A stretch of 64,000 bases of DNA, from positions 111,771 to 175,770 of the forward strand of contig OZ244039.1 of NCBI GenBank assembly GCA_965215225.1. The letters are read 5' to 3'. This stretch comes from Gammaproteobacteria bacterium. Its GTDB lineage: Bacteria; Pseudomonadota; Gammaproteobacteria; CBDBNL01; JAAOII01. The notes beneath the pieces are model-generated. The model had not been told where the DNA came from, did no database searches, and was given only the letters and a program-made list of their open reading frames with translations. The stretch's first letter is position 1, and every line of letters begins with the position of its first letter. Of this stretch, positions 8,990-44,897 are shown one piece after another. Both the position numbers and the translations under genes were made by a program.

Positions 8990-9053
8990 TTTGACAAGAT
9001 ATACAAGGATACCTTGTATTAATATGAAAATAGTTTTATAATATCAGTATAGA

Positions 9054-9127
9054 GGCCGGGATAGCTCAGTTGGTAGAGCAACTGATTCGTAACCAGTAGG
9101 TCAGAGGTTCGATTCCTCTTCTCGGCA
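9054..9127 (+). tRNA. tRNA-Thr (anticodon CGU). No encoded CCA.
   Basis: Manual cloverleaf: acceptor GCCGGGA/TCTCGGC, D-arm GCTC-AGTTGGTA-GAGC, anticodon loop TTCGTAA, T-arm AGAGG-TTCGATT-CCTCT. Close to E. coli thrW-type tRNA-Thr(CGU). Confidence 0.85.
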
Positions 9128-9153
9128 TTGAGTAAATTGTTATAGTATGAATA

Positions 9154-9960
9154 ATGGGCATATTAGACAGCTTTAGAAGGAGAAAGCAGGTTATTAGCCC
9201 CGCACAGCAGGGGCTAGAATCTCAGTCAAAGGTGCTGGGCGAGAAGAAAGTGGTGAGCACAAGTAATTCGCTTGCTCGTATCACAATTATGAATGGTAAG
9301 GGCGGAAGTGGTAAGAGCACTCTCGCCACCAATCTTGCCGCGCTTCTTTCTTCTCATGATGAGAGTGTCACCTTAATAGACAATGACCCCCAGTGTTCTA
9401 GCATTCGCTGGCTGGGTGAGCGCCCCCATGATATGACTGTTATTAAGGGGGTCACTGTCAGCGAAACCGCCAGATTAAAGAATATTCGCCTCAGATCTGG
9501 TGCAGTAGGGGCAAAGACCAACTATATCATCACCGATACTCAGGCTGGGTTGCACGGTCTTGGTCTAACCGATGTCATTGACCGCAGCGATATGATGATT
9601 ATCCCTGTTCTGCCCTCTGCTATAGACATGCGGGTAACTGCCGACTTTGTTGCCCAGATATTTCTAAATCGTTCTTATCGCAACAAGCCAAAACCCTTAG
9701 GAGTGGTCGCAAATCGGGTCATCAACGACTCTGTTATCTATCGCAAACTACAAAAGTTTTTGCTCAGTCTGAGAGTCAATTTCATCAGCACTTTTCGCGA
9801 CAACAAAGCCTACTTAGAAGCTGCCGAAAAAGGAGCAGGGATCTTTGAGTTAAATTGGCCTGGCCTTGAAGAAGAAAGACAGGAATGGCAACTACTACTC
9901 CGCTGGATAGAAGACAAGAAAGCCAAGCTACAGCCCTCCTCGTCCCTAAGCGCAGACTGA
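9154..9960 (+). CDS. ParA/MinD-family P-loop ATPase (orphan), directly upstream of ccmB where ccmA would be expected.
   Basis: Deviant Walker A ITIMNGKGGSGKSTLATNLAALLS followed by VTLIDNDPQ, a ParA/MinD signature and not the ABC ATPase signature expected for CcmA. 8-bp gap to ccmB. Confidence 0.65.
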   Translation: MGILDSFRRRKQVISPAQQGLESQSKVLGEKKVVSTSNSLARITIMNGKGGSGKSTLATNLAALLSSHDESVTLIDNDPQCSSIRWLGERPHDMTVIKGVTVSETARLKNIRLRSGAVGAKTNYIITDTQAGLHGLGLTDVIDRSDMMIIPVLPSAIDMRVTADFVAQIFLNRSYRNKPKPLGVVANRVINDSVIYRKLQKFLLSLRVNFISTFRDNKAYLEAAEKGAGIFELNWPGLEEERQEWQLLLRWIEDKKAKLQPSSSLSAD

Positions 9961-10609: not shown

Positions 10610-11321
10610 TCTCACCAAATTGCTTGCTTTACGCAACTGCTATAACCTTAGCGAACGGTTGACTCCTATCCTGCTCCCCATATCCATCGGACTACTGATC
10701 TGCGGAGCACTCTGGGGGCTAATCTATGCGCCGACTGACTTTCGCCAGGGCGACGCCTATCGCATCATCTTCATCCATGTTCCGGCTGCTTTTAGCGCCG
10801 AAGCCATCTATATGTTCATGGCGGCGGCTGCCTTCATATTTCTCATTTGGCGGATCAAATTGGCATATTTGCTAACCAAGGCGGCTGCGCCCCTTGGTCT
10901 TAGCATGGCGTTTATCACCCTTGTGACCGGCTCCCTATGGGGAAAGCCAACCTGGGGAGTCTTCTGGGTTTGGGATGCCCGTATTGTTTCGGTGTTGCTC
11001 TTGTTCATCCTCTATCTAGTGATTATCAACATCCAAAAGTCTCTTCGCCCAGCCGATTTTGCCGCCAAAGCCAGCTGCGTCATCATTCTGCTTGGCTTAG
11101 TCAATATTCCCATCATCAAGTTCTCGGTTGATTGGTGGTTCACTCTTCATCAAAGTGCCTCTCTTTCCCTCTTTCGCCCTCCTTCTATGCCACCCTCTAT
11201 GTGGATGCCACTACTCTTTATGATATTTGCCTTCAACCTATACCTTATCACCCTATTGCTCCTTCGCCTTAACAACGAGATCCTATACTCTGAAAGGCAC
11301 AACCGCTGGTGGCAAGAATGA
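10596..11321 (+). CDS. ccmC: Heme exporter protein CcmC.
   Basis: Tryptophan-rich WWD motif (WGKPTWGVFWVWDARI) and conserved His residues. 241 aa. Confidence 0.85.
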   Translation: MLPLSLTKLLALRNCYNLSERLTPILLPISIGLLICGALWGLIYAPTDFRQGDAYRIIFIHVPAAFSAEAIYMFMAAAAFIFLIWRIKLAYLLTKAAAPLGLSMAFITLVTGSLWGKPTWGVFWVWDARIVSVLLLFILYLVIINIQKSLRPADFAAKASCVIILLGLVNIPIIKFSVDWWFTLHQSASLSLFRPPSMPPSMWMPLLFMIFAFNLYLITLLLLRLNNEILYSERHNRWWQE

Positions 11322-11476
11322 TAACCGAACTCTTTGTGATGAACGGTCATGGCATCTATGTTTGGTCTGCTTATCTCCTGTGCGCGCTGGTGTTGGCGGT
11401 TAATCTAATCCACCCGCGCCGTGAGCTGGCTCGGCTGACAAAGACTCTCAAGACTAAAAGCAAGAATGCGTCCTAA
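11318..11476 (+). CDS. ccmD: Heme exporter protein CcmD (52 aa). Not in the ORF track.
   Basis: Manual translation: MITELFVMNGHGIYVWSAYLLCALVLAVNLIHPRRELARLTKTLKTKSKNAS. Single TM segment, start overlapping the ccmC stop and stop overlapping the ccmE start, as in canonical ccm operons. Confidence 0.6.
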   Translation: MITELFVMNGHGIYVWSAYLLCALVLAVNLIHPRRELARLTKTLKTKSKNAS

Positions 11477-11873
11477 GCGGCGACAAAATCTACAAGCGCT
11501 CATCTTTATCATGCTAGCAGTAGCCTCAGCTACCGCTATCATCCTCTATCAACTCAGAGCCAATATCAACTATTTCTACACCCCATCTGATTTAGCTACC
11601 AGCGATCTGCCATCCGATGCAAGAATAAGAGTCGGCGGCTATGTGGTAAATGGCAGCCTTCGCTACAACCAAGACGGCAGCGCCCAATTCCTGCTAACCG
11701 ATAATCTGGCGGAAGTAGCGGTGGTCTATAGGGGCGTCCTGCCAGCCCTCTTTGCCGAAGGGGATCAAGCCGTAGTAATAGGAACAAATGGCAACAAGCA
11801 AATACTGGCAACCCAGGTCCTAGCAAAGCATGACGAGAACTACCGCCCCCCTGAACTGAAAGAATTAGAATAG
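11466..11873 (+). CDS. ccmE: Cytochrome c-type biogenesis heme chaperone CcmE.
   Basis: N-terminal TM anchor, OB-fold region ...RIRVGGYVVNGSL..., 135 aa. ccmF does not follow; the repeat array begins 7 bp after the stop. Confidence 0.8.
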   Translation: MRPKRRQNLQALIFIMLAVASATAIILYQLRANINYFYTPSDLATSDLPSDARIRVGGYVVNGSLRYNQDGSAQFLLTDNLAEVAVVYRGVLPALFAEGDQAVVIGTNGNKQILATQVLAKHDENYRPPELKELE

Positions 11874-11894
11874 CACCCTGTAGTTATTCCAACT

Positions 11895-13204
11895 AATGGA
11901 AGCGGTAAAGAAGCAGCGCGTCTAAACAAATCTGATTTAATTGAGGTTCGCCAATCCCATCCAAAAACTACCAGCTATGCTATTGGATTGAAGCTGAGGA
12001 ACTAAGTCAAAGCCAGCCATATATAAGAAGGAAAACAGCTTGGCTAGATGGGTCTGGTTGGGTTCAGCTGTCCTAGTCGCTTCGGTTGAAGCTGAGGAAC
12101 TAAGCCAAAGCAAGCTACCTATATATAAGAAGGAAAACAGCTTGGCTAGATGGGTCTAGTTGGGTTCAGCTGTCCTAGCCGCTTCGGTTGAAGCTGTTGA
12201 ATATAAGAGACTAGTCAAAGCCAGCTACCTATATATAAGAAGGAAAGCAACTTGGCTAGATGGTCTGGTTGGGGTTGATCTGTCCTAGCTGAGAACCTAG
12301 TCAAAGCCAGCCACCTATATATAGGAAGGAAAGCAGCTTGACTAGATGATTCTAGTTGGGATTCATCTGTCCTAGCTGAGGAACCTAGTCAAAACCAGCT
12401 ACCTATATATAGGAAGAAAAGCAGCTTGACTAGATGATTCTAGTTGGGATTCATCTGTCCTAGCTGAGAACCTAGTCAAAGCCAGCTACCTATTATATAA
12501 GAAGGAAAGCAGCTTGGCTAGATGGGTCTGGTGGGGATTCTTCTGTCCTAGCCGTTTCGGTTGAAGCTGTTGAAGCTGAGGGACTAGTCAAAGTCAGCCA
12601 CCTATTACATAAGAAGAAAAGCAGCTTGACTAGATGGTCTGGTTGGGGTTGATCTGTCCTAGCTGAGAGCCTAGTCAAAGCCAGCTACCTATATATAGGA
12701 AGAAAAGCAGCTTGACTAGATGGTCTGGTTGGGGTTGATCTGTCCTAGCTGAGAACCTAGTCAAAGCCAGCTACCTATATATAGGAAGAAAAGCAGCTTG
12801 ACTAGATGGTCTGGTTGGGGTTGATCTGTCCTAGCTGAGAACCTAGTCAAAGCCAGCTACCTATTATATAAGAAGGAAAGCAGCTTGGCTAGATGGGTCT
12901 GGTAGGGATTCTTCTGTCCTAGCCGTTTCGGTTGAAGCTGTTGAAGCTGAGGGACTAGTCAAAGTCAGCCACCTATTACATAAGAAGAAAAGCAGCTTGG
13001 CTAGCTGGGTCTGGTTGAGTTCCTCTGTCCTAGCCGCTTTGGTTGAAGTTAGAGGGCCTAAGTCAAAGCAAGTTGTCGATTTAAGGTGAAAGGCTAATCA
13101 AAATCAGTTTGAAGAAGAAGGCAGACTGTCTAAGCGAGTCTGGTCTAGTGTGGGCTTGGCAGGCGTCCCCTCCAAAGACCACCAGCTACGCCAGTTGTCA
13201 ATGG
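11895..13204. repeat. Tandem array of ~12 copies of an 86-118 bp repeat derived from the 3' cassette-junction element of the giant lipoprotein genes. Each unit carries an 8-bp stem ctagtcaa/ttgactag around a TATATATA core and a GCTTC-GGTT-GAAGC hairpin.
   Basis: Direct reading: units such as gcagcttgactagatggtctggttggggttgatctgtcctagctgagaacctagtcaaagccagctacctatatataggaagaaaa recur head-to-tail. Longer variants insert ccgtttcggttgaagctgttgaagct. No unique spacers between units. Confidence 0.85.
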
Positions 13205-15613
13205 CTAATGGTGTGCAGCGAATGGCCGGATATTGACTTGAAGTGCCGAAATCCCAGATAAGATTGTCAGTCGAATTTGTTCATCTGCCTCAATGCTCCC
13301 GCTATGATCCCTATCACACCAGACCGCCAATGGCACGTTATCCCCATCGCTAAATATATTTGTCTCCTCGTCCCACCTATCATAAATATCTGTATAGCCA
13401 GTTGGGCTGCGGAGATCACTAGTGGTCTTGGCTTCACCAATGTTGCCAATACTGCCACTACTAAGAACATCACTGTCCCAATAGGAAGCAACTCCATCTC
13501 CGTCTGAAGCCGTCCCCGTCATAGCAGTATTACTGCCTGAAACTACATAAGAATAAGCAACCCGACCAGCATTAGCATCAACGCCAAGGAAGCCCACCAG
13601 ACCGCCTACAGAAGCAAGAAACAACCCCCCCATTCCGTTCACCTCAGCCACCACAACCGAAGAAGAATGAATCCGAGCACCTGGACCCCGCCCCAACAGA
13701 CCACCTACACTATTACCATTATCCCCTCTCACTTCACCTGCCACAACCGAAGAAGAATATATCTCAACCGATTCACTATCCCCTACCAGACCACCTACAT
13801 TACCCGCAACACCACTCCCTCTCACCTCACCCACCACGACCGAAGAAGAATATATCTCAACCGATATGCCCCCAGTCACTGGGCCCCACCCCAACAGACC
13901 TCCTACTTGATTAGCCCCGCTCACCTCACCCGCCACAACCGAAGAAGAATGAATCCGAGCCAATTCACCATACCCCACCAGACCGCCTACAACATTATCA
14001 GTCCCGTTCACCTTACCCGCCACAACCGAAGAAGAAACAATCCGAGCACTCATACCTCTCCCCATCAGGCCGCCTACATTAATACCACTCCCGCTCACCT
14101 CAGCCACCACAACCGAAGAAGAATTAATCTGAGCCGACGAACCAACCCCCATCAAACCGCCTACACTACCAACCCCTCTCACCTCAGCCACCTCAACCGA
14201 AGAAGAAACAATCCGAGCCGAGCCACCATTCCCTACCAGACTGCCTACAACTCGCCTTCCTATCACCGCTTCGGCGCGGAGAGTCAAATTGCGAATCTCT
14301 GAACCCGTAGCTATATAGCCAAACAAACCCACACAATCCTCAGCTGGACGACTAATGCTTAGATCACTGATCGTCCAGCCATTGCCTTCAAAAGTCCCAT
14401 CAAAAGCAGCTCCTTGACATAAAGCCATACTACTATCTGTATCATTCCCTAATGGCTGCCAGCCTTTGCCCTCTCTATAAGCGGCAAGACTTATATTCCC
14501 AACCAACTCATAGCCAGAACAAGAAGTGATCGCAGCGCCATCACCACAGCCAGTGCTATCAAGCGACCCATCCGCCGATAGCTTTCGCCCATTACCTTCT
14601 AGAGCATGCCTCACTGCATCCAATTGCGCCGCCGTCTCTATCTCTATCAACCCATCCCCATCTCTATCTACGTCCGCCCCATCCATAGAACCATCATTAT
14701 CATCATCTGTATCTTCACCTGCATCTCGGCAACCATCCATATCACTATCGGTCGAAGGATTACTCATCCAACCTGTCTCACCAGCAGAACAGTCGTCCAA
14801 ACTATCACCTACCTCATCATTATCACAATCCGCTAACAACCGACAACTCATCCCACCTGAATTAGTCAGCTGCTCCTTCGTATCAGTATCATCCAACCCA
14901 TCATTATCATCATCTGTGTCCTCAGTCTCATCACGGCAACCATCCCCGTCATTATCGCTAGAAGCATTGCTCTGCCAGTTGATCTCGTGACCAACAGCAT
15001 CCGGATCATCACATCGGTCTGCCTCATTATTAACATCATCGCCATCTAAGTCATCATCCACACTGTCTGCTCGTCTATCCCCATCCGTATCCAGCCCTGA
15101 CCCAATGCCGCCATCGTCGTGGTCGGCCTCATTCTCTGGCCAAACAAAATTGATTGCTACCCTCTGCTGTCTGCCATCATCAAGAGTCCCTATAATCGCA
15201 AAGGTCCAGTTGGATTGGTCGCCTAACCCAGTGAGGTTATAACTGTCATCAGCAAATTCGTTTATGTTAATATTCTTATTTACAGACTCGGTTCTATTGG
15301 TCGCCGTAATCCTCAAAGAAACCATCTCGCCAAAATCCGATTGGTTGCCTATTTGAAAACCATCGGGTATGGGAGCAAAAGTGAGATTTACCTCAAAAGG
15401 CCGGAGAGAACTAGGAGGACCATCACCTGGACCGCCTCCCCCATCTGAACCATTTTCCGAATCATCGCTTCCCCCACCAGCACAAGCCGTAAGAACTAGA
15501 AAGCTGAACCCAACTAAAAAGAAGAGAAGCCGCCCGCCTCGCAAAATCGGAAGGAAAGCAAGCACGAAAGAGGAAAGAAGACCCCGCACCAAACTAAACA
15601 AGCGGGGGGGCAT
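13205..15613 (-). CDS. Giant surface lipoprotein, single cassette (802 aa): lipobox LVLTAC, Ig-like FEVNLTFAPI domain, thrombospondin type-3 repeats, ~10 GLUG-motif repeats (VGGLVG), C-terminal AVWCD...WDFG...YPA domain.
   Basis: ORF track. TSP3 consensus D.D.DG..D..D.C..........D.DGDG..D visible repeatedly. GLUG period of ~19-22 aa. Paralogous to 16365-21803 and 62612-64000. The plus-strand Ser/Pro-rich ORFs inside are antisense artefacts. Confidence 0.7.
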   Translation of the reverse strand: MPPRLFSLVRGLLSSFVLAFLPILRGGRLLFFLVGFSFLVLTACAGGGSDDSENGSDGGGGPGDGPPSSLRPFEVNLTFAPIPDGFQIGNQSDFGEMVSLRITATNRTESVNKNININEFADDSYNLTGLGDQSNWTFAIIGTLDDGRQQRVAINFVWPENEADHDDGGIGSGLDTDGDRRADSVDDDLDGDDVNNEADRCDDPDAVGHEINWQSNASSDNDGDGCRDETEDTDDDNDGLDDTDTKEQLTNSGGMSCRLLADCDNDEVGDSLDDCSAGETGWMSNPSTDSDMDGCRDAGEDTDDDNDGSMDGADVDRDGDGLIEIETAAQLDAVRHALEGNGRKLSADGSLDSTGCGDGAAITSCSGYELVGNISLAAYREGKGWQPLGNDTDSSMALCQGAAFDGTFEGNGWTISDLSISRPAEDCVGLFGYIATGSEIRNLTLRAEAVIGRRVVGSLVGNGGSARIVSSSVEVAEVRGVGSVGGLMGVGSSAQINSSSVVVAEVSGSGINVGGLMGRGMSARIVSSSVVAGKVNGTDNVVGGLVGYGELARIHSSSVVAGEVSGANQVGGLLGWGPVTGGISVEIYSSSVVVGEVRGSGVAGNVGGLVGDSESVEIYSSSVVAGEVRGDNGNSVGGLLGRGPGARIHSSSVVVAEVNGMGGLFLASVGGLVGFLGVDANAGRVAYSYVVSGSNTAMTGTASDGDGVASYWDSDVLSSGSIGNIGEAKTTSDLRSPTGYTDIYDRWDEETNIFSDGDNVPLAVWCDRDHSGSIEADEQIRLTILSGISALQVNIRPFAAHH

Positions 15614-15799
15614 TATTGCGGCTATGTAACAAGGCGGACATAGACAAGGTAAGATAAGAGAAATAAAAGCGAGGCATTGCCGAGGCTAGATAAAAGAAAT
15701 CAGAAAGCAAGGCATTCACAATAGTGAAGAAGCGAGACCTGGTCACGCTAGATAAGAAAATTTTTGTTATCATGGCTAGTAATTGGTTAATGAATTCAT

Positions 15800-15960
15800 A
15801 GGTGGCATTATACCTCTTTTATAGATCTTTTATCTTTTTTTTAACTTTTTTTATCTCTTTTTTACATATCTTTTATCTTTTTTTTGTATCTTTTTTATCT
15901 CTTTTTTATATCTCTTTTAGGTCTCTTTTATATCTTTTTTCTGGTTATTTTTGTCTCAAC
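15800..15960. repeat. Degenerate ~13-bp repeats (tatctcttttttat)n in the 5' region of the 13205-15613 gene.
   Basis: Direct reading of ...ttttatctcttttttacatatcttttatcttttttttgtatcttttttatctcttttttatatctcttttaggtctcttttatatctttttt... Confidence 0.6.
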
Positions 15961-16035
15961 TAGCATTCAATTAATAGAAGATGAATGGTTAGTTCTGCCA
16001 GCTCAATTAACATCAGGACAATGCTCCTTGCCTGT

Positions 16036-16446
16036 TGGATTGAAGCTGAGGAACTAAGTCAAAGCCAGCTACCTAATATATAAGAAGGAAAGCAGCTTGA
16101 CTAGATGGGTCTGGTCGGGGTGTGCCACCAACCAAAGACCACCAGCTATGCCGTTTCGATTGAAGCTGAGAAACTAAGTCAAAGCCAGCTACCTAATATA
16201 TAAGAAGGAAAGCAGCTTGACTAGGTGGGTCTGACTGGGTTCAGCTGTTCTAGCCGTTTCGGTTGAAGCTGGGGGGCTAAGCTAAAGCAAGTTGGTAGTT
16301 TAGGAAAGCAGCTTGGCTAGATGGGTCTGGTTGAGTTCCTCTGTCCTAGCGGCTTCGGTTAAAGCTAGGGAAGCAACGCGTCTAAACGAGGCTGGTTTAG
16401 CCGGGGTTTGGCTGGCGTCCCCTCCAAAGACCACCAGCTACGCCAG
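16036..16446. repeat. Second array (3-4 units) of the junction-derived 100-115 bp repeat, overlapping the 3' coding end of the 16365-21803 gene.
   Basis: Same unit family as 11895-13204 (ttgaagctgaggaactaagtcaaagccagctacctaatatataagaaggaaagcagcttgactagatgggtctgg...). The conserved junction core cctccaaagaccaccagctacgccag lies at 16415-16446. Confidence 0.8.
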
Positions 16447-19400
16447 TCATCAGGGGCTAGCGGGGTGCAGAGAAGAGCGGGATATTGACTTGAGGTGCCG
16501 AAATCCCAGATGCGATTATCAGGGGTTCGTTCATCTGCCTCTATGCTCCCGCTATTATCCCTATCACACCAGACCGCCAAAGGCACGTCTTCCCCATCGT
16601 TAAATATATTTGTATGATTGCCCCAGTTGGCATAAATATCTGTATAGTCAGTTGGACTGCGGAGATCACTAGTGGTCTTCGGGTCACCAATGTCGCCACT
16701 AAGGACATTACTAGTATCACTGTCCCAATAAGAATCAACATCAGTAATCCCGCTTCCAACTCCAGCCAACATATTGGTATTCCTGCCTGAGACTACATAA
16801 GAATAAGCAACCTTGCCAGAGTAAAAGGCTCCCGCCAGACCGGCTATACTACCTAGTAAACCACCACTCCCGCTCACCTCACCCACCACAACCGAAGAAG
16901 AATGAATCCGAGCCGAGCCACCATTCCCTACCAGACCGCCTACACTACTACTCCCGTTCACCTCACCTGCCACAACCGAAGAAGAATGAATCCCAGCCCG
17001 AACACCATTCCCTACCAGACCGCCTACATACAAACCAGTTCCGCTGACCTCAGCCACCACAACCGAAGAAGAAAAAATCCGAGCCGAGTGACCCCATCCT
17101 ACCAGACCACCTAGAACCCCCAACCCGCTCACCTCTCTTGCCACAACCGATGAAGAAAAAATATGAACGCCATCCCCCCACCCCACCAGACCGCCTACAC
17201 GAAGATTACCTTTCACCCCACCCACCACAACCGAAGAAGAAACAATCCGAGCCAAGCCACCATGCCCCACCAGACCGCCTATACTAGTATTCCCACTCAC
17301 CTCACCCACCTCAGCTGAAGAAGAATTAATCCGAGCCGAGCTGCCATCCCCCACCAGACCGCCTACACGAAGATTACCTTTCACCCCACCCACCACAACC
17401 GAAGAAGAAACAATCCGAACATCTGTCCCATACCCCACCAGACCGCCTACTCTATCACCACCTACTACTGCCTCGGCATGAAGAGTCAGATTGCGAATCT
17501 CTGAATTCGCAGCTATATGACCAAACAAACCCACGCAATCCTCACCTGAACGATTAATGCTTAGATCACTAATCATCCAGCCATTGCCTTCAAAAGTCCC
17601 ATCAAAAGCAGCTCCTTGACATCCATCTGTAACATTATCTGTATCATGACCCAAGGGTTGCCAGCCTTTGCCTCCATCACCATCTGCATAGGCTGCAAGA
17701 CTTATATCCGCAACCAGCTCATAACCATTACAGGTCCTAATGCTGTCGCCATCACCACAGCCAATGGTGTCGGTCGTCGCATTCTCTGATAGCTGGCGCC
17801 AGCTACCATGCAAAGCATACCTCACTGCATCTAATTCCGCGGCCCTAGCTATCTCTATCAAACCATCGCCATCATCATCTATATCTATATTGTCGTCATA
17901 ACCATCGCCATCGCAATTCCTATCTAATGCACATCCAGCTGCCTCATCACCATCTCGGACCTCATCATTATCATCGTCTGTATCCTCATCTGCATCACGG
18001 CAACCATCGCCATCATTATCAGTAGAACCATTGCTCGTCCAACCCGTCTCACCAGCAGAACACTGGTCTGAATTATCATCTACCCTATCATTATCGCAAT
18101 CAGTCTTTATTACACAATTTGCCGCCACTTCATCTATGTCTCTGACAGTATCCCCATCGCAATCTGCTAACAGCGAACAACTCACCCCATCCAAATTATT
18201 CTGCTGCTCCCTCACATCAGTATCATCCAATCCATCATTATCGTCATCTGTATCCTCACCCCCATCACGGCAACCATCCCCATCATTATCGGACGATGAA
18301 TTGCTCGTCCAACTTGTCTCACCAACAGAACATTGATCTGAACTATCAGTTACCAAATCATTATCATCATCTTCATCCTCACCCTCATCACGGCAACCAT
18401 CCCTATCATGATCGGTAGAACTATTGCTTAGCCAATCGGGCTCGCCAATAGAACATTGGTCTGAATTATCATCCACCTCATCACTATCACAATCAGTTTC
18501 TATTACACAATTTGATGCCATCTCATCTATATCTCTGACAGTATCCCCATCGCAATCCGCTAACAACCAACATGTCACATTATTTGAATTAGTTAGCCGC
18601 TCTCTCGAATCATTATCCCCTAACCCATCATTATCACAATCCTCATGCAAACGACACTCCCTTCCATCAACCATTCCTGTATCCAGCAAATCTAAAATAT
18701 TATCATCATCATCATCCTCATCACAAGCATCCCCTTCAGTATCACCATCAATATTATATTGTCGAGGATTTACAACAAGCCGGCAATTATCCCTAACATC
18801 CGGAACCCCATCATTATCATCGTCATCATCCACACTATCCGCTCGCCCATCCCTATCTGTATTTAGACCTGGCCGAATACCGCCGCTTGCGTGATCTTCA
18901 CGATTCTCTTGCCAGATAAAATTTATTCTCATATTTTGCTGCCTCCCATCACTAAGAGCCCCTATAATCCGAAAAGTCCAATCGGTTTGATCATCTAGCC
19001 CGATAAAATCATAATAGCTGTCATCAATAAATTCGGCTATGTCAATATCCTCTTCTACTACCAACCCGCCTTCATTAGTTGCTTTGATGTTCAAAGAAAC
19101 CGAATCACCAAAATCCGATTGGTTAGCTATGCGAAAACCATCGCTTATGGGAGTAAAAGTGAGATCCACCTCAAAGAAAGGAAGCAGCTCATCTAAACGG
19201 GTCCGGTTTAGTCGAGGTTTACCAATCTCATCCAAAAACCACGAGCTACGCCAGTCGGCAGGGGTTAGCTGAGTGCAGCGAATGGCGGGATATTGACTTG
19301 AATTACCGAAATCCCAAATAAGATTGTCCTCGGTTTGTTCATCTGTCTCAATGCTCCCGCTATTATCCTCATCACACCAGACCGCCAATGGGACGTCTTC

Positions 19401-21803
19401 CCTATTGCCAAATATATTTGTAGCATTGTCCCAATCGGCATAAATCCCTTCATAGCCAGTCGGCATCCGAAGTGCATCGCTGGTCTTGGCTTCCCCAGTG
19501 CTTCCACTATTAACACCATTAACATCACTGTCCCAATAAGAATCAACATCAGTAACCCCGCTTCCAGTCCCAACCAGCATAGCAGCATCTGAGACCACAT
19601 AAGAATAAGCAAGCTTGCCAAAATCAAAACGCCCCGCCAGGCTGCCTATAAAATTACGTCGCCCACTCACCTCAGCCACTACAACCGAAGAAGAATGAAT
19701 TTGAGCGAATGGTCCATCCCCTACCAGACCGCCTACAAAACTAAAAAAACTGTTCACCCCGCTCACCTCAGCCACCACGACCGAAGAAGAGTGAATATGA
19801 GCACCTTCACCCAACCCCACCAGACCGCCGACAGTAGAGCGCCCGCGCACTTCACCCGCCACAACCGAAGAAGAATCAATCCGAGCCGATAGACCCCAAC
19901 CCACTAGACCGCCTATTAGGCTATTCCCGTTCATCTCACCAACCACAACCGAAGAAGAATGAATTTGAGCCGAGTCACCCAAACCCACCAAACCACCTAT
20001 CCAATCATTAGTCCCGCTCACCTCGCCAGCTACGACCGAAGAAGAAACAATCCGAGCAAATTCACCAGACCCCATCAGACCGCCTATACTCTGCACACCC
20101 ATCACCTCACCCACCTCAACCGAAGAAGAATGAATCCGAGCGAATTCACCATACCCCACCAGACCGCCTACAGCATTTCTACCTATCACTGTCTCGGCAC
20201 GAATATTCAAATTGCGAATCTCTGAATTCGCAGCCACATGACCAAACAAACCCACACAATCCTCGCCTGAACGACTAATACTTAAATTGGTAACCGCAAA
20301 ACCATTGCCTTCAAAAATTCCGTCGAAAGCGGCTCCTTCACATTCACCTTCAAAATTTAGTGGTCCTTCCCCCAAGGGCTGCCAGCCTTTGCCGTCCCTA
20401 TAAGCAGCAAGACTTATATTCCCAACCAGCTCATAGCCATCACAGAACCTAATGCCGTTGCCACCACCACAACCAGTGGTGTTGAGTTCCGCATCCGCTG
20501 ATAACCTACGCCCATCGCCATTCAGAGCATACCTCACTGAATTCAATTCCGCCGCCGCGGCTATCTCTATCAAACCATCGCCATCTCTATCTATGTCCTC
20601 ATCATCCATAACCCTATCATTATCATCGTCATCATCCTCACCTGCATCACGGCAACCATCGCCATCATTGTCGGTAGAAGGATTGCTCGTCCAACCTGTC
20701 TCACCAGCAGAACACTGGTCGAAATAATCATCTACCTCATCATTATCACAATCCTCATACAAGCGACACTCCCTCCCATCAACCATTCCGGTATCCATCA
20801 AATCTGGCAATAGATCATTATCACAATCCTCATATAAGCGACACTCCCTCCCATCAACCATTCCGGCATCCATCAAATCTGGCAATAGATCATTGTCATC
20901 ATCCATATCCTCAGTCTCATCACGGCAACCATCCATATCATTATCGCTAGAAGAATTGCTCGTCCAACCTGTCTCACCAGCTTCGCACAGGTCCAAATTA
21001 TCATTTACCTCATCATTATCACAATCGCTGTCTAATTCACATCCAGCCTCCTCATCCAGATCTTCTACCTTATCATTATCATCATCTGTATCCTCAGTCT
21101 CATCACGACAACCATCCCCATCATTATCGGTCGATGAATTGCTCGTCCAACCTGTCTCGCCAGTTTCACACAGGTCTGAACTATCATTTACCCTATCATT
21201 ATCATCATCCTCATCCACACTATTCGCTCGCCCATCCCCATCCGTATTGTTTCCCGCCCGAATGCCACCGCTCTCGTGATCTTCCTCATTCTCTTGCCAC
21301 ACAAAGCCTATCTCCACCTCCTGCTGCCTGCCATCACTAAGAATCCCTATAATCGCAAGAGTCCAGTTGGATTGCTCATCTAGCCCAGTAAAGTTATAGC
21401 TGCCATCAACAAATTCGGCTATGTTGATATTTAGCTCTTCTACCACCGACCCATTCTCACTGGTTGCCTTGATGCTCAAAGAAACCAAATCACCAAATGC
21501 CGATTGGTTGCCTATTTCAAACCCGCCACTTATAGGAGCAAAGGTGAGATTTACTTCAAAAGGTCGGAGAGAACTAGGAGGGACTTCAGTTGGACTGCCT
21601 CCCGAACCCCCACCAGCACAAGCAGTAAGAGTTAGAAAGCCAACCCCAACCAAAAAGAAAAGAAACCGCTTGCCTCGCAAAAGCGGAGGGAAGGCAAGCA
21701 CAAAGGAGAAAAGAAGTCCCCTCACTAAACTAGACACGCGAAGAGCGGACACAAAGGAGTGGCATAACGGAGGCACAAGAAAGACATAGACGAGGGAAAA
21801 CAT
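16365..21803 (-). CDS. Giant surface lipoprotein formed by in-frame fusion of two complete cassettes (1812 aa). Each half has the FEVNLTF Ig-like domain, TSP3 repeats, GLUG repeats and a WDFG/YPA C-domain. The halves are joined through a translated junction element (...YPAIRCTQLTPADWRSSWFLDEIGKPRLNRTRLDELLPFFEVDLTF...).
   Basis: ORF track. Internal repetition of the whole domain order. Nucleotides 19190-19330 match the intergenic junction or tail element found after the other cassettes. Confidence 0.7.
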   Translation of the reverse strand: MFSLVYVFLVPPLCHSFVSALRVSSLVRGLLFSFVLAFPPLLRGKRFLFFLVGVGFLTLTACAGGGSGGSPTEVPPSSLRPFEVNLTFAPISGGFEIGNQSAFGDLVSLSIKATSENGSVVEELNINIAEFVDGSYNFTGLDEQSNWTLAIIGILSDGRQQEVEIGFVWQENEEDHESGGIRAGNNTDGDGRANSVDEDDDNDRVNDSSDLCETGETGWTSNSSTDNDGDGCRDETEDTDDDNDKVEDLDEEAGCELDSDCDNDEVNDNLDLCEAGETGWTSNSSSDNDMDGCRDETEDMDDDNDLLPDLMDAGMVDGRECRLYEDCDNDLLPDLMDTGMVDGRECRLYEDCDNDEVDDYFDQCSAGETGWTSNPSTDNDGDGCRDAGEDDDDDNDRVMDDEDIDRDGDGLIEIAAAAELNSVRYALNGDGRRLSADAELNTTGCGGGNGIRFCDGYELVGNISLAAYRDGKGWQPLGEGPLNFEGECEGAAFDGIFEGNGFAVTNLSISRSGEDCVGLFGHVAANSEIRNLNIRAETVIGRNAVGGLVGYGEFARIHSSSVEVGEVMGVQSIGGLMGSGEFARIVSSSVVAGEVSGTNDWIGGLVGLGDSAQIHSSSVVVGEMNGNSLIGGLVGWGLSARIDSSSVVAGEVRGRSTVGGLVGLGEGAHIHSSSVVVAEVSGVNSFFSFVGGLVGDGPFAQIHSSSVVVAEVSGRRNFIGSLAGRFDFGKLAYSYVVSDAAMLVGTGSGVTDVDSYWDSDVNGVNSGSTGEAKTSDALRMPTGYEGIYADWDNATNIFGNREDVPLAVWCDEDNSGSIETDEQTEDNLIWDFGNSSQYPAIRCTQLTPADWRSSWFLDEIGKPRLNRTRLDELLPFFEVDLTFTPISDGFRIANQSDFGDSVSLNIKATNEGGLVVEEDIDIAEFIDDSYYDFIGLDDQTDWTFRIIGALSDGRQQNMRINFIWQENREDHASGGIRPGLNTDRDGRADSVDDDDDNDGVPDVRDNCRLVVNPRQYNIDGDTEGDACDEDDDDDNILDLLDTGMVDGRECRLHEDCDNDGLGDNDSRERLTNSNNVTCWLLADCDGDTVRDIDEMASNCVIETDCDSDEVDDNSDQCSIGEPDWLSNSSTDHDRDGCRDEGEDEDDDNDLVTDSSDQCSVGETSWTSNSSSDNDGDGCRDGGEDTDDDNDGLDDTDVREQQNNLDGVSCSLLADCDGDTVRDIDEVAANCVIKTDCDNDRVDDNSDQCSAGETGWTSNGSTDNDGDGCRDADEDTDDDNDEVRDGDEAAGCALDRNCDGDGYDDNIDIDDDGDGLIEIARAAELDAVRYALHGSWRQLSENATTDTIGCGDGDSIRTCNGYELVADISLAAYADGDGGKGWQPLGHDTDNVTDGCQGAAFDGTFEGNGWMISDLSINRSGEDCVGLFGHIAANSEIRNLTLHAEAVVGGDRVGGLVGYGTDVRIVSSSVVVGGVKGNLRVGGLVGDGSSARINSSSAEVGEVSGNTSIGGLVGHGGLARIVSSSVVVGGVKGNLRVGGLVGWGDGVHIFSSSVVAREVSGLGVLGGLVGWGHSARIFSSSVVVAEVSGTGLYVGGLVGNGVRAGIHSSSVVAGEVNGSSSVGGLVGNGGSARIHSSSVVVGEVSGSGGLLGSIAGLAGAFYSGKVAYSYVVSGRNTNMLAGVGSGITDVDSYWDSDTSNVLSGDIGDPKTTSDLRSPTDYTDIYANWGNHTNIFNDGEDVPLAVWCDRDNSGSIEADERTPDNRIWDFGTSSQYPALLCTPLAPDDWRSWWSLEGTPAKPRLNQPRLDALLP

Positions 21804-21965
21804 CCCTTCACCAAACTAGACAAGCGGGAAGCAGGACACAAAGGAGTGGCATAACGGAGGCACAAGAAAGACATAGACGAGGAAAAACATCCCTTCACCA
21901 AACTAGACAAGCGGGAAGCAGGACACAAAGGAGTGGCATAACGGAGGCACAAGAAAGACATAGGG
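21736..21965. repeat. Three tandem 87-bp copies of the 5' end (start-codon region) of the 16365-21803 gene.
   Basis: Unit period of exactly 87 bp (acacaaaggagtggcataacggaggcacaagaaagacatagacgag...). Upstream copies carry ATG-initiated short ORFs that end at a TAG created by a 1-nt difference from the gene-proximal copy. Confidence 0.8.
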
Positions 21966-22225
21966 GAGGTGAGATAAGAGAATAGAAGCGGGACCCAATA
22001 TCCACAATATTGAAGAAGCGGAGCTTCACTTCCTTGTCTTCACCGAAAAACAAAAATTGTCTTGTCATGGTTAATGATTGAAACTAATAAGAACATTGTT
22101 CAGCTGCTTATCAGCTAGCTAAAAGCAGAAATGGTTTCATAGTCCTATTATATCTTTTCTTCCAACTAAAAAAAGGAATACTGTAATCATATTAGCAGTC
22201 TTAGTTTGTTAGTTTTTGTCAGTTT

Positions 22226-22645
22226 AAGGAAGGAAGCCGCTCATCTAAACGGAATGGTTTAATTTGTCAAGCGTCCCAGCCAAAGCAAGTTGTCAGCTTA
22301 AGATGAGAGGCTAATCAAAATCAGCCCAAGAGGGAAGTAGATTAGCTAAATGGGTCTGGCTGGAGTTCCTCTAGCCTAGCCGAGAATCTAAGCCAAAGCC
22401 AGTTGTCAGTTTAAGGAAGGAAGCAACTCGTCTAAGCGGGTTCGGTTTAGTTGGGGTTTGGCAGGCGTCCCCTCCAAAGACCACCAGCTACTTCGGTTGA
22501 AGCTGAGGAACTAAGTCAAAGCCAGCTATCTATATATAAGAAGGAAAGCAGATTAGCTAAATGGATCTGGTTGGGGTTCATCTATCCTAGCCCCTTCGGT
22601 TGAAGCTGAGGAACTAAGTCAAGGCAAGTTGGTGGTTTAGGAAAA
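22226..22645. repeat. Third array (~4 units) of the junction-derived repeat family, upstream of the 16365-21803 gene.
   Basis: Units contain aaggaagcaactcgtctaagcgggttcggtttagttggggtttggcaggcgtcccctccaaagaccaccagctac and ttcggttgaagctgaggaactaagtcaaagccagc. Confidence 0.8.
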
Positions 22646-22647
22646 TA

Positions 22648-22840
22648 GGCGGATTCACATTTAAAGTGCAACATCTGTTGCTAAATTATAATTGATTTCG
22701 CTGAGTTGTTAGAACACTTCAGCGGGTGTTTCGAATCCGAGGCACTTTCGTGGTCGGTTGTTCAATCGGGTCATGATTTTAGTTATTATTTGGTTAGATA
22801 GATTTCGGAAGGACATTCTTTTCTCTGAAAGATAATGCTT
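22648..22840 (-). mobile_element. IS30-family right-end remnant (IRR ggcggattcacatttaaagtgcaacatc plus ~50 C-terminal transposase codons).
   Basis: Colinear nucleotide similarity to the 3' ~190 bp of the intact IS copy, in reverse orientation. Confidence 0.6.
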
Positions 22841-22912
22841 TTTACACATTTTAGATCGGCTAGTTATCTTGGAGTCAGGTTGCCCTTAGGATGTAAATTT
22901 ATGTTGTAGTCA

Positions 22913-23659
22913 TCAGACATTATTGTGTCTTTGATGAATGGTGTTTATTGTTTTCTTGTTTCTATTAATCGATATGACTTGCCTCCCATGTTTTTTTGCT
23001 GCTGTCCCAGTAGTTTCGTTCCCGCCAGAAAGAATCAACACAGTATTACCTACATTACTATGAGCTAAGATGATTCGCTCCAAAATATTAAAGGGTCTTT
23101 GAATAGAGTTCTTATTCCCATTATTCTTTTCTTTGCTATTACTTTTTAGTATCGGCATACTATCCCACCAGACATCAGTCGGAGTTTTGCCACGCTTAGC
23201 CTTTTCATCTCCTACTAACATAGGCGCCATATATGGTATGCGATCTATTTCCTCGTAGTTATAGCTATAATTTTTGTTATCCTTTGTGTACCACAAGATA
23301 TAGTGATGTTTTGTCGGCCATCTCGATCTGCTTCGAGCCCTTCCCTCATAGGCTAGGATGATTTCGTTTATAAAATTACTCCTACCAAATAATTTATCCA
23401 TCTCAATTTTGATATAGTGAACCTCTCTATAGTCTGCTTGTAAAAAGAAACTTCCGTTATCACTTAATAATGGATATGCTAACTCCACTCTATCCATCAA
23501 GAATGAAATGTGGTTTCTGGATTTGTCACCTTGCCCTCGCCTATTCTTAAAGAGCCGCTCAATGTAAATAAGATCTATGCTACCCTTTTTTATGGTAGGT
23601 AAATTCATATCTTCTTTCCAAACTAAAAAACAATTGCTGAAATCATATCGGCATGGCAA
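22913..23659 (-). CDS. Degenerate beta-class (CcrM-like) DNA methyltransferase homologue with both catalytic motifs ablated. A likely inactive pseudo-enzyme or early-stage pseudogene, although the ORF is intact.
   Basis: Colinear with CcrM: SIDLIYIERLF (for SVDLIFADPPY), LSDNGSFFLQADY (for LKPNGSLWVIGSY), HHYILWYTKDNKNYSYNYEEI (for [19 protein letters not shown]), and ILSGGNETTGTAAKKHGRQVISI (for [25 protein letters not shown]). DPPY is replaced by ERLF and D-FxGxG by SGGNE. Confidence 0.5.
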   Translation of the reverse strand: MPCRYDFSNCFLVWKEDMNLPTIKKGSIDLIYIERLFKNRRGQGDKSRNHISFLMDRVELAYPLLSDNGSFFLQADYREVHYIKIEMDKLFGRSNFINEIILAYEGRARSRSRWPTKHHYILWYTKDNKNYSYNYEEIDRIPYMAPMLVGDEKAKRGKTPTDVWWDSMPILKSNSKEKNNGNKNSIQRPFNILERIILAHSNVGNTVLILSGGNETTGTAAKKHGRQVISINRNKKTINTIHQRHNNV

Positions 23660-23873
23660 TACGGATACTTCATTATACCTTCATTGCCCATTGCCATTAG
23701 ATCTTCCTTCCTTTGCCAAACTCTTGATTTGAAAGTTCTGATTAATTAAAGCAACTCAAATAAGTTCTACTAACTACAATTGAGTCAAACCATCTAAGCC
23801 AATTTGAAATAAATCATCTTATAATGACAACTCAAGAATCATTTAAATAATTCTAACTTCTATTTGACTAACT

Positions 23874-24992
23874 ATGAAAAAAATAGCGTTCTACCTTCCT
23901 TTATTACTGATGGCCAGTCTGCCAGTTCATTCATTGGAGCTGGTTACCAGTATCAAACCGCTTCAGCTAATGGCATCGGAGCTTATCCTACCCCAAGACC
24001 GGGTAGCTTATCTCATCCCACCTAATGCATCGCCTCACACCTATGGCTTGAAACCCTCTGCCATAAGGCAAGCAAGACAAGCCGACCTTGTTCTCTGGGT
24101 TGGCAGTGGGCTGGAAAGCAAATGGGGGAAGTTGTTCACTAGCCTCGACTCATCTATTGAGCTAGCTCAGGCACTAGGCTTACAAGAGGAGAGAGAAGAA
24201 CATGGTGAGGACCATGATAAACACCATGGTGAAAAGCACGATGAAGAGCATAGCGAAGAGCATGATGAAGAGCATAGCGAAGAGCATGATGAAGAGCATA
24301 GCGAAGAGCATGATGAAGAACATAGTGAAAAGCACGATGAAGACCATGGTGAAAAACATGGTGAAAAACATGGTGAAGAGCATGGTGAAAAACATGGTGA
24401 AGAGCATGGTGAAAAGCATGATGAAGACCATCATGAAGACCATGATGAGGAACATGGTGAAGAGCATGCTCATCACGACCATTCTCATTCAATTGACCTT
24501 CATATCTGGTTGTCGCCTCCATTGATGAGGCAGACAGCAGCCGTTATCACCGACCGCTTAATCCAACTCAATCCTTCTCAAGCAGAATCCTACCAACAAA
24601 AATTGGCTGCTTTTGAAAGAGACCTAGCCACCGCCATTAATGCCATAAACAACGACCTACTAGCTGTAAGGGATAAGAAGTTCTATACCATGCATGATGC
24701 CTATAACTACTTCACTTCCTATTTTCATCTCAGCAACACTGGTTATCTGACCCTCTCGCCTGAGATTCCCCTGTCAGCTTCCCATCTACAGAGGGTTCGC
24801 TCCGACCTAAAAAACAAAGACATCGTCTGCGTATTTAGCGAGCCGCAACTAGATGAGGCAGCGGTTCTCAAACTCATTGAAGGCACTCAGGTTCGTTATG
24901 GCATTCTAGACCCCCTAGCAGGCAATGCGAACGACTATTTCAGCTTTCTCCACACGCTAGCAGATTCATTCAAACAATGCCTTGCTTCCTAA
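23874..24992 (+). CDS. znuA: Zinc ABC transporter periplasmic substrate-binding protein ZnuA-like, with a long His/Glu/Asp-rich loop.
   Basis: Signal peptide. Cluster-9 SBP pattern. Loop HGEDHDKHHGEKHDEEHSEEHDEEH... encoded by 24-bp nucleotide repeats (agcgaagagcatgatgaagagcat x4). The ORFs 24154-24525 are artefacts of this repeat. Confidence 0.75.
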   Translation: MKKIAFYLPLLLMASLPVHSLELVTSIKPLQLMASELILPQDRVAYLIPPNASPHTYGLKPSAIRQARQADLVLWVGSGLESKWGKLFTSLDSSIELAQALGLQEEREEHGEDHDKHHGEKHDEEHSEEHDEEHSEEHDEEHSEEHDEEHSEKHDEDHGEKHGEKHGEEHGEKHGEEHGEKHDEDHHEDHDEEHGEEHAHHDHSHSIDLHIWLSPPLMRQTAAVITDRLIQLNPSQAESYQQKLAAFERDLATAINAINNDLLAVRDKKFYTMHDAYNYFTSYFHLSNTGYLTLSPEIPLSASHLQRVRSDLKNKDIVCVFSEPQLDEAAVLKLIEGTQVRYGILDPLAGNANDYFSFLHTLADSFKQCLAS

Positions 24993-30507: not shown

Positions 30508-30779
30508 ATCTAAAAGCACACTGCTGCTTTTTTATTTCGGTTTGGGATTGGTTTACCGCTGCTAGTATTTAGGTTTGTCGCTTCCAACGTCTAAATCTAA
30601 AAGCACACCGCTGCTTTATTTCGGTTTGGGATTGGTTTACCGCTGCTAGTATTTAGGTTTGTCGCTTCCAGTATTGAGGCTTATTGCTTCTAGTATCTAG
30701 GTCTATTGCTTCCAGTATGTTCCAGTATATTAAAGCATCTAAATCTGAAGCATAGACCCTGCTAAGAAGTTCTAGTGAA

Positions 30780-44825: not shown

Positions 44826-44897
44826 TATCTTAATAAGAATATCAAATACAAAAGGAGTTGTGACTCATTATAATTCAACAAAATGAGCGGGGATTAA

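Follow-up and report, generated by a model that had tools for sequence, protein, structure and literature searches.

The window analysed here, a stretch of 64,000 nt, carries at 16365–21803 (minus strand) a gene for a two-module surface lipoprotein, 1812 aa long when read from ATG and 1803 aa when read from GTG, the start chosen by gene callers. In both modules, an N-domain (FEVxLTF...) is combined with Asp-rich TSP3-like repeats, 28-aa GGLVG repeats, a cap (WCD...WDFG...YPxxRC) and a tail. An N-terminal lipoprotein signal with the lipobox L-T-A-C (...FLTLTACAGGGS) is present in this protein, in the neighbouring 802-aa protein and in relatives. The module-1 N-domain starts with FEVNLTFAP (21534–21560, minus strand), preceded by the lipobox LTAC and a G/S linker, as is usual for this domain. 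The module-2 tail (16368–16469, minus strand) forms the true coding C-terminus, ...CTPLAPDDWRSWWSLEGTPAKPRLNQPRLDALLP, with the stop codon TAG at 16365–16367. The module-1 tail (19179–19277, minus strand; aa 843–875, CTQLTPADWRSSWFLDEIGKPRLNRTRLDELLP), which is the core of the finding, serves as the linker between the modules. Modules 1 and 2 are only 67–70% identical.

For the 1812-aa protein, comparison with known families gave resemblances only, every match falling short of the curated cut-off. The Asp-rich DxDxDGxxCxD repeats recall those of thrombospondin type-3 repeat proteins such as MtsC, and the 1812-aa protein matched both TSP_3 (Pfam PF02412; 18.7 bits, cut-off 25) and MtsC (NF047638; 28.8 bits, cut-off 350) below the cut-off, while the paralogue at 53802–61322 exceeded the MtsC cut-off when its repeats were summed (525 against 350). 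The 28-aa GGLVG repeats are reminiscent of the motif of GLUG proteins (PF07581; ZmpA-type), with a Glug match at E = 2.9 and 9 bits against a cut-off of 20.5. Unlike MtsC and ZmpA-type proteins, the 1812-aa protein has neither a MYXO-CTERM nor a protease domain. The tail and N-domain matched no Pfam family, a literature search for GLUG/TSP3 lipoproteins found nothing relevant, and scanning contigs with the C-terminal 150 aa returned just three distant matches (39–52% identity). An AlphaFold2 model of the junction region (cap, tail and N-domain; 11-row alignment) had a mean pLDDT of 55, too poor for inference.

The initial annotation had drawn attention to 19190–19330 as a segment read in frame inside this ORF and joining module 1 to module 2, and this reading was borne out: the minus strand encodes ...IRCTQLTPADWRSSWFLDEIGKPRLNRTRLDELLP and then directly FFEVDLTF..., the start of the second module. 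Its reported homology to three other sites also held, at 80–85% identity and far above shuffled controls (16380–16520, 109/137, 80%; 13150–13290, 83/98, 85%; 22420–22500, 47/58, 81%). The description of these sites as non-coding tails proved correct for 22420–22500 alone, which belongs to an orphan copy; 16380–16520 is the C-terminus of the same ORF and 13150–13290 a frameshifted coding tail. The latter belongs to the single-module paralogue at 13205–15613 (minus strand), 802 aa as read, which a frameshift cuts short near the 3′ end. The ORF leaves the tail frame because of a 2-nt GA insertion at 13271–13272 (minus strand, relative to L009) and nothing else; the out-of-frame tail, CTPLAIDNWRSWWSLEGTPAKPTLDQTRLDSLPSSSN, occupies 13104–13217 (minus strand) up to the original stop TGA at 13104–13106. 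The counterpart in L009, at a 98%-identical locus, lacks the GA insertion and encodes 901 aa with the tail in frame.

The tail is a conserved protein segment across the family. With the consensus CTPLxPxDWRxWWxL...PxLNxxRLDxLLP (34–35 aa), it forms the C-terminal end of at least 30 related proteins, its pooled dN/dS is about 0.25 (15 tails), and tails differ in length by whole codons only. Six-frame scans of the window and loci L004–L008 yielded 17 tails, all of which except the module-1 tail have a stop right after LLP or LLPxxN; one of them, with its stop, belongs to a further paralogue (62612–62716, minus strand; ...CTPLAPDEWRDWWFLNATGKPELDRDRLEEALSQ). The same regions contain nine N-domains, and all eight others than the one at the joint have a lipobox ahead. 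A profile search of the representative library identified 15 proteins with the strict tail motif, carrying 15 C-terminal and 7 internal tails, the latter in P0009 (six) and P0010 (one) and each followed by an N-domain 1–10 residues later. The tail thus acts as inter-module linker in three family members, with one junction in the 1812-aa protein, one in a 1766-aa protein and six in a 7295-aa protein, and relatives contain one, two or seven modules. At each of these junctions the internal tail leads directly into an N-domain of the form (F/L)E(V/A)xLTFxP, as in LLPFFEVDLTFTP of the 1812-aa protein and in LLPSFEAYLTF, LLSSFEVDLTF and MLYSFEANLTF of P0009 and P0010; P0009 contains at least two junction types, LLPSFEV and ...RFSSFSSPGSLEV.

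Module 2 fully matches the family motif, WCD...WDFG...YPxxRC followed by the tail C-T-P-x5-W-R-x-W-W-x-L...P-x-L-[ND]-x2-R-L. The module-1 tail matches it save for two substitutions (P to Q, W to S), each at a site where the 16 other tails in the comparison do not vary. These changes could reflect some relaxation after internalisation, an idea weakened by the internal tails of P0009 and P0010, which retain both residues. In distant multi-module relatives, a short segment after YPxxRC serves as linker (P0018, P0037, P0040 and the window genes 47802–53720 and 53802–61322), and it is tail-like in P0018, P0037 and P0040. The more distant window paralogues end soon after YPxLRC without a tail, so the tail is a subfamily-specific extension.

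This last observation, together with the existence of non-coding copies downstream of genes, is what favours the idea that an intergenic junction element following each gene cassette was exapted as a coding linker upon loss of a stop. We consider such a capture very improbable, since coding sequence accounts for two of the three copies cited as non-coding, at least 30 members conserve the tail as protein (dN/dS 0.25, indels of codon size), and tail-like segments occur in distant relatives; moreover, the non-coding units contain stops, 1-nt indels and 3′UTR sequence missing from the linker, and no homologous stop has been mutated. The intergenic copies are decayed, and the linker is ancestral coding sequence, the very outcome that the initial annotation had named as speaking against capture.

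The non-coding copies form three arrays around the two genes, all on the minus strand. Eleven pseudo-tail units of 86–112 nt lie 3′ of the 802-aa gene (11983–13070), with an orphan tail fragment at the end (approximately 11905–11990), and three lie directly 3′ of the 1812-aa gene (16035–16364). The third, an orphan array 5′ of the 1812-aa gene (22215–22640), holds a nearly complete non-coding tail copy with its native 3′UTR (22385–22495) and two to three degenerate units, and adjoins an apparent transposase C-terminal remnant (22712–22774). Altogether, 17 units were found in the window, 45 in L004–L008 and 24 in L009, all on the gene strand and nearly all directly 3′ of tail-bearing genes; a few orphan arrays lack such a gene upstream (22215–22640 in the window; 5365–5555 in L008). 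The units carry stops, frame breaks and 1-nt indels, and a chain of homology (79–92% identity, z = 9–15) leads from the real tail through the orphan copy (22385–22493) and the long units to the short ones. TRF resolved arrays with periods of 86–102 nt and 86–94% matches. As tandem head-to-tail intergenic units whose copy number varies between strains, they have the properties of VNTR/MIRU-like minisatellites: the array directly 3′ of the fused gene consists of three units in the window, whereas L009 has about 12 in that position, with flanks 98–99% identical. Arrays of a similar kind adjoin polA, mnmA and a permease gene, and the polA–mnmA copy number is about 5 in one strain and 1 in the other. 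We did not read cross-species selection from the conservation of units between loci, because L004 and L007 derive from the sample that also yielded L009 and might represent paralogous loci within a single genome.

The look-alikes would then be derived, decayed copies, arising by tandem duplication of the last 35–90 nt of the coding sequence together with about 60 nt of 3′UTR; such duplicated gene ends may have piled up and decayed downstream of the genes to become today's copy-number-variable minisatellites. The direction from coding to non-coding is our inference from these comparisons. A structured RNA element was rejected, as units, linker and tail folded no better than shuffles (units z = +0.3 to −0.9), one unit at z = −2.3 excepted, and an Rfam scan of 11000–24000 at E ≤ 1 gave no match. 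The search for an integron attC or other structured cassette-junction element likewise found no well-folding palindrome, no Rfam match and no integrase among the neighbouring ORFs scanned. As to a diversity-generating retroelement, no reverse transcriptase was present among ten neighbouring ORFs scanned, the copies are numerous instead of a single TR, and indels are among their differences. In a promoter and terminator scan, the number of terminator-like sites matched background (11 against 9.8 ± 3.2) and promoter-like sites were slightly enriched (26 against 16.8 ± 4.1), with weak TAGCCA/TAGTCA-17-TATAAT/TATATT matches inside four pseudo-tail units; the genes of the family have their own A-tract/TATAAT upstream regions.

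The fusion joint itself maps to 19173–19184 (minus strand), where CTT CCT TTC TTT encodes L P F F. Its 5′ side is homologous to tails and its 3′ side (GAGGTGGATCTCACTTTT...) to the N-domain start, elsewhere found after a lipobox. Tail homology ends at CTTCCTT(T/C)CTT, two codons ahead of the ancestral stop (LLPxxN and stop), and is followed by N-domain sequence and not by 3′UTR, which points to an in-frame deletion or duplication joint. At the DNA level, the tail reads ...GCTTCCTTCCTTAAACTGA, the N-terminal region ...CTCCGACCTTTTGAAGTA and the junction GCTTCCTTTCTTTGAGGTG. The initial annotation had proposed a gene fusion by loss of a stop and suggested aligning the junction copies to find the responsible nucleotide. 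Neither the tail alignment nor the junction DNA contains a homologous stop mutated to a sense codon at the aligned position, so no point change removed a stop; a fusion or duplication in frame, with loss of the stop, is nonetheless a reasonable origin, because the join lies at the very end of what elsewhere is the C-terminus of a gene.

Taken together, we regard it as very probable that 19190–19330 is the conserved C-terminal tail of a module of about 800–940 aa, used here as an inter-module linker, and that its non-coding look-alikes are derived. The general unit consists of N-domain, TSP3-like Asp-rich repeats, 28-aa GGLVG repeats, WCD/WDFG/YPxxRC cap and the 34–35-aa tail, the last serving as C-terminus in single-module members and as module-to-module connector in multi-module ones. 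In the fused gene, the module-1 tail is joined in frame to the module-2 N-domain two codons before the ancestral stop, and the joint does away with the stop, 3′UTR, promoter and signal peptide/lipobox of the would-be second gene. It probably arose at a short pyrimidine-rich microhomology (CCTT/CTTT), through unequal recombination or a deletion involving two paralogues in tandem; a tandem duplication of one entire module would be equivalent.

Support for the joint being genuine came from L009, an independent assembly from another sample (ERZ25070786 ctg132453l) that is syntenic and collinear over a 20-kb context at 97–98.7% identity. It carries the same fused 1803-aa gene with an identical open junction and is the only other strain found, the 90% cluster having no further member. 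That two paralogous genes were collapsed or mis-joined into a false fused ORF might be suspected from the high repetitiveness of the region and from the 2-nt indel of the neighbouring gene, which could be an assembly error; given the same junction in a second, collinear assembly and the same kind of junction in P0009 and P0010, we find such an artefact scarcely credible. Neither a recent fusion nor a toggling stop or readthrough site, both raised in the initial annotation, gains support from a second strain with the same fused gene. The modules have diverged to 67–70% identity and the junction type recurs in P0009 (six times) and P0010; the two-gene version that was to be sought in other strains was not found, as both members of the 90% cluster are fused.

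A switchable junction, alternating between a two-gene and a one-gene state by stop/readthrough, frameshifting or phase variation, might be suspected from the frameshifted or split genes in the family (the 802-aa gene with its 2-nt insertion, and genes called in pieces in L005, L007 and L008) and from a poly-C tract in a 5′ region of L004. However, the junction CTGCTTCCTTTCTTTGAGGTG contains no stop, no homopolymer (no run longer than 3) and no slippery heptamer X XXY YYZ, and it is open and identical in both available strains. The 3′UTR, promoter and lipobox expected between a stop and the next N-domain are all absent, which leaves no alternative state to toggle to and makes switching extremely improbable.

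Within the fused gene, window and L009 show 82 differences in 5.8 kb, clustered in places: 10 fall in 19265–19304, where the linker has its 5′ edge, and a further 10 and 8 in 204xx and 199xx, respectively. The L009 version of the differing tract better matches another paralogue type, and the paralogues are mosaic. Such patchiness, together with array copy numbers that change between near-identical strains and junctions at the same place in three proteins, raises the possibility that tail, 3′ pseudo-tail arrays and internal linker act as direct-repeat recombination handles for gene conversion, module gain or loss and fusion, generating surface variation. We consider this unlikely; it would amount to a cassette-free route to variation among giant surface lipoproteins. 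Every copy has its own lipobox and promoter-like A-tract/TATAAT region, which argues against a layout of expression site and silent cassettes; no adjacent recombinase was seen among the ORFs scanned; and the occurrence of equivalent arrays beside unrelated housekeeping genes, namely polA, mnmA and that of a permease, favours a general, neutral, genome-wide process.

Extragenic homology elements are known from antigenic variation, such as the UHS/DHS of Borrelia hermsii and the Sma/Cla repeat of Neisseria pilE/pilS. As in those systems, a conserved block lies at and after the 3′ end of every surface-protein paralogue and there are signs of patchy gene conversion; unlike in them, each gene here has its own lipobox and upstream region, so that a lone expression site served by promoterless silent cassettes is absent, and similar arrays also flank housekeeping genes. 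Bacterial intergenic minisatellites of the MIRU/VNTR type consist of tandem units of about 50–110 nt, oriented with the flanking genes and overlapping or copying stop and start regions. The arrays described here share the unit size, the tandem intergenic arrangement, the gene orientation, the overlap with or copying of stop and start regions and the strain-variable copy number (3 against about 12; about 5 against 1 at polA–mnmA), but their units are pseudo-copies of the adjacent gene's own terminal coding sequence and UTR, not a dispersed, gene-unrelated family.

Giant multi-module surface proteins and adhesins, including repeat-rich adhesins of the RTX/Bap/SiiE type, arise by intragenic tandem duplication. 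The present family resembles them in its long surface proteins of repeated homologous modules, variable in number between relatives. It differs in that the unit is a composite module of about 800–940 aa with N-domain, Ca-binding-type repeats, beta-helix-like repeats, cap and tail, that the linker is identical to what single-module genes carry as their free C-terminus, and that an N-terminal lipobox is present. N-domain identities define no clean 'internal' clade; the internal N-domains of P0009 are 79–87% identical, and adjacent modules within one protein are the most alike. As to the order of events, the sequences by themselves are compatible both with a single ancestral fusion later multiplied by module amplification and with repeated, independent fusions.

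The attractive account of a captured non-coding element is therefore replaced by an ordinary one, in which the C-terminal segment of a repeated module also works as a linker, and the finding is largely ordinary because the look-alike copies are probably decayed tandem duplicates of gene ends. It reveals that very large TSP3-like/GGLVG-repeat lipoproteins, built of one to seven modules, form an unannotated family, in a genome in which tandem duplication of gene ends is common and strain-variable. For gene callers, the arrays are a warning of possible false starts, pseudo-ends and small spurious ORFs. For the family itself, the duplication of gene ends may provide a substrate for fusion and diversification of surface proteins.

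The stretch at 19190–19330 lies within ORF 16365–21803 (minus strand), where it reads in frame as ...YPAIRCTQLTPADWRSSWFLDEIGKPRLNRTRLDELLP, followed directly by FFEVDLTFTPISDGF..., in agreement with the translation in the initial annotation. The 1812-aa product contains two homologous modules (aa about 82–875 and 876–1812), both similar to the neighboring 802-aa gene (13205–15613, minus strand). Each module comprises an N-domain, TSP3-like repeats, GGLVG repeats, a cap (WCD...WDFG...YPxxRC) and a conserved C-terminal tail of 34–35 aa. The proteins are predicted lipoproteins with an LTAC lipobox. Their Asp-rich thrombospondin-type-3-like repeats match TSP_3/MtsC below the cut-off in the 1812-aa protein and above it in a 2506-aa paralog, the 28-aa GGLVG repeats bear only a resemblance to the GLUG motif (E = 2.9), and the N-domain, cap and tail matched no Pfam family. 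An AlphaFold2 model of cap, tail and N-domain (mean pLDDT 55) was too uncertain for use. The 5′ end of the ORF is spanned by a tandem repeat of an 87-nt unit in 2.9 copies (21717–21963, 95% matches). The annotated ATG at 21803 falls within this repeat, and gene callers choose a GTG lying nine codons further in, which gives 1803 aa.

The stretch resembles all three sites that had been listed as its non-coding counterparts, with identities of 80% (16380–16520), 85% (13150–13290) and 81% (22420–22500), but only 22420–22500 is a real non-coding orphan. Site 16380–16520 is the C-terminus of ORF 16365–21803 itself (...CTPLAPDDWRSWWSLEGTPAKPRLNQPRLDALLP, stop at 16365–16367), and 13150–13290 corresponds to the homologous tail in the 802-aa gene, where one frame gives ...IWDFGTSSQYPAIRCTPLAIDNWRSWWSLEGTPAKPTLDQTRLDSLPSSSN up to TGA 13104–13106. 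A 2-nt GA insertion (13271–13272) takes the annotated 802-aa ORF out of this frame; it is absent from L009, a syntenic, 98%-identical locus in which the gene encodes 901 aa and keeps the tail. The insertion lies 26 codons ahead of the premature stop of the 802-aa gene, cutting off the conserved tail, and is either a real pseudogenizing mutation or an assembly error. A fourth coding copy of the tail ends ORF 62612–63982 (minus strand).

DNA alignment revealed that module 1 tracks the other tails as far as CTTCCTT(T/C)CTT. Past this motif, the others run into AAACTGA (LLPSLN, LPSSSN or, in contig L004, LLPFSN, each followed by stop) or, in module 2, TAG, whereas module 1 runs into GAGGTGGATCTCACTTTTACT, homologous to CCTTTTGAGGTAAATCTCACTTTTGCT, the N-domain start in the 802-aa gene and in module 1. 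The alignment thus contains no nucleotide change removing a stop, as had been proposed; tail homology gives way to N-domain sequence, and this switch places the joint two codons before the ancestral stop. Missing at the joint are the stop, the 3′UTR, the upstream region and the signal peptide/lipobox that a second gene would have had, and a short pyrimidine microhomology (CCTT/CTTT) occurs in both parents of the joint. The two modules are genuinely joined in frame where a gene once ended; the join would have arisen by unequal recombination or deletion between tandem paralogs or, equivalently, by tandem duplication of an entire module.

L009 belongs to an independent assembly from another sample, and between polA and ccmC its sequence runs collinear to that of the window (97–98.7% identity). 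Its fused gene encodes P0011 (1803 aa) with the junction LLPFFEVDLTF, as in the window, and P0011 and the window protein are the only two members of their 90% cluster. This shared junction in a collinear context makes an assembly artifact very unlikely. A two-gene version was looked for in this second strain, which carries the fused gene. Across N-domains and C-terminal regions, modules 1 and 2 share just 67–70% identity, a similarity no greater than that of either to paralogs elsewhere, which, with the fused gene in L009, speaks against the recent fusion suggested initially. Nor does a toggling stop or readthrough site hold, as no stop, homopolymer or slippery motif occurs at the junction, which is the same in L009.

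Between window positions 16091 and 21882, which take in the gene and its adjoining 3′ array, 82 differences separate the window from L009, and these are clustered: the linker's 5′ edge (19265–19304) accounts for 10, 199xx for 8 and 204xx for 10. In the linker-edge tract, the L009 version is closer to the 62612-type paralog than to the window allele, and the window version is closer to the 802-type paralog. The pattern fits short gene-conversion tracts and keeps alive the idea, to which we assign a low probability, that tails and arrays might serve as recombination handles.

With the junction region as query, a word-indexed protein search yielded eight relatives from metagenomes, none matching across the junction; they align either with the left half, ending at the tail (...LLP, ...ALNQ), or with the right half, starting with signal peptide, lipobox and N-domain. 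The five contigs with these relatives (L004–L008) hold 13 more tail-bearing genes, all with a stop after the tail (LLP or LLPFSN) and a lipobox ahead of every N-domain. Across 15 tails, pooled dN/dS was 0.25, and length differences were whole codons. Among 1.84 billion representative proteins, a profile search identified 15 that have the strict tail motif, with 15 C-terminal and 7 internal tails, the latter at six junctions of P0009 (7295 aa) and one of P0010 (1766 aa), each followed within 1–10 residues by an N-domain (LLPSFEAYLTF, LLSSFEVDLTF, MLYSFEANLTF). More distant multi-module relatives (P0018, P0037, P0040 and the 1972-aa and 2506-aa proteins of the window) carry a short segment after YPxxRC between modules, which is tail-like in the first three. 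The tail is, on this comparative evidence, ancestral coding sequence; given the internal tails and between-module segments, the linker is a normal module end and its use as a connector a family trait. The module-1 tail has two substitutions (CTP to CTQ and WW to SW) at positions invariant in 16 other compared tails. Since the internal tails of P0009 and P0010 retain these residues, the substitutions offer at best weak evidence that constraint has relaxed locally.

The two giant two-module paralogs of 1972 and 2506 aa (47802–53720 and 53802–61322, minus strand) lack the W-rich tail, their modules being connected by YPxLRCAPPLxDSF and then an FN3-like N-domain; the 2506-aa protein has about 11 near-identical 78-aa (234-nt) repeats. 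The single-module genes are preceded by A-tracts with 11-nt phasing (about 10 copies of TTTTATCTTTT), which end in TATAAT (window 15817–15940, L004 9400–9600, L009 14470–14590) and look, from their sequence, like a curved-DNA promoter region kept among paralogs. In L004, a run of about 12 C (9795–9812) lies near the 5′ end of a short paralog, in its signal-peptide region and ahead of the called start; it may reflect phase variation by strand slippage or a homopolymer error of long reads.

Downstream of tail-bearing genes lie tandem arrays of 86–112-nt pseudo-tail units: 11 units at 11983–13070, three at 16035–16364 and an orphan array at 22215–22640. Each unit combines a degenerate copy of the last 35–90 nt of the CDS (e.g., ...AACCAGACCCATCTAGCCAAGCTGCTTTCC vs AACCAGCCTCGTTTAGACGCGTTGCTTCCC in the tail) with copied sequence from the stop region and some 60 nt of 3′UTR (...GCTGGCTTTGACTTAG...CAGCTTCAACCGAA); long units begin with AGCTGGTGGTCTTTGG, encoding SWWSL. 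Homology runs from the real tail through the orphan 22385–22493 to long and then short units (79–92% identity, z = 9–15 vs shuffles), and, read in the frame of the tail, the units show stops and 1-nt indels. Together these features argue for descent from coding to non-coding sequence, the reverse of the captured intergenic element first proposed, as does the coding conservation of the tail. An nhmmer search found 17 units in the window, 45 in L004–L008 and 24 in L009, all on the gene strand and nearly all 3′ of tail genes, the arrays with no tail gene upstream being 22215–22640 and L008 5365–5555. The array between the 1812-aa and 802-aa genes has 3 units in the window and about 12 in L009, with one and nine AGCTGGTGGTCTTTGG starts, respectively, and flanks 98–99% identical. 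Units matched no Rfam family and folded no better than shuffles; terminator-like sites showed no enrichment and promoter-like sites only a marginal one. Many small ORFs (30–89 aa) called on the opposite strand within L008 pseudo-tail arrays (9021–9573, 12901–14425, 17948–19020) are almost certainly spurious. Between the orphan array and an N6/N4 DNA methylase gene (22913–23659), a short ORF remnant (22712–22774, minus strand; ...ITKIMTRLNNRPRKCLGFETPAEVF, stop), which we take to resemble an IS30-family transposase C-terminus, suggests that a former paralog was lost to an insertion or deletion.

Similar arrays flank unrelated genes. At 28640–29465, the polA 3′ end (...VDFGYGANWDEAH, stop), a short spacer and the first mnmA codons are repeated in tandem about five times, with G-rich 12-mers in between; the unit is single-copy in L009 (1032–1115). 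Directly after mnmA (30485–30718), 84-nt and 22-nt repeats carry pseudo-copies of its last codons (...GFIASNI vs GGTTTGTCGCTTCCAACGTCTAA). The region 44897–46341, upstream of an ethanolamine-permease gene (46337–47797), is a 5′ gene-boundary array, with nine 23-nt units each containing ATGACAAAGCAAGAGG, and 103/173/290-nt units copying the start codon and first ~30 codons. The 87-nt repeat over the 5′ end of the 1812-aa gene is a further case of such arrays. A long pyrimidine-rich array of another make-up fills the space between the 62612 paralog and the 2506-aa gene (61450–62488), with about 87 copies of GCCTTCT and then about 30 of a 14/28-nt unit, CTTCCCCTTGCTAA; the source contig, which includes ccm genes and polA, has many heptamer and other tandem repeats. 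The simplest account of the gene-end appearance of these "junction elements" is that duplications spanning a boundary are tolerated because one intact gene end remains, and those within a gene are not.

The 1812-aa product is a multi-module repeat surface protein of a known kind, and of its initial interpretation the in-frame joining of modules at what was once the end of a gene stands, but intergenic capture, a point-mutated stop, recency and toggling are not supported. A more noteworthy side result is that tandem duplication of gene ends is pervasive, varies between strains and is a general habit of this genome.
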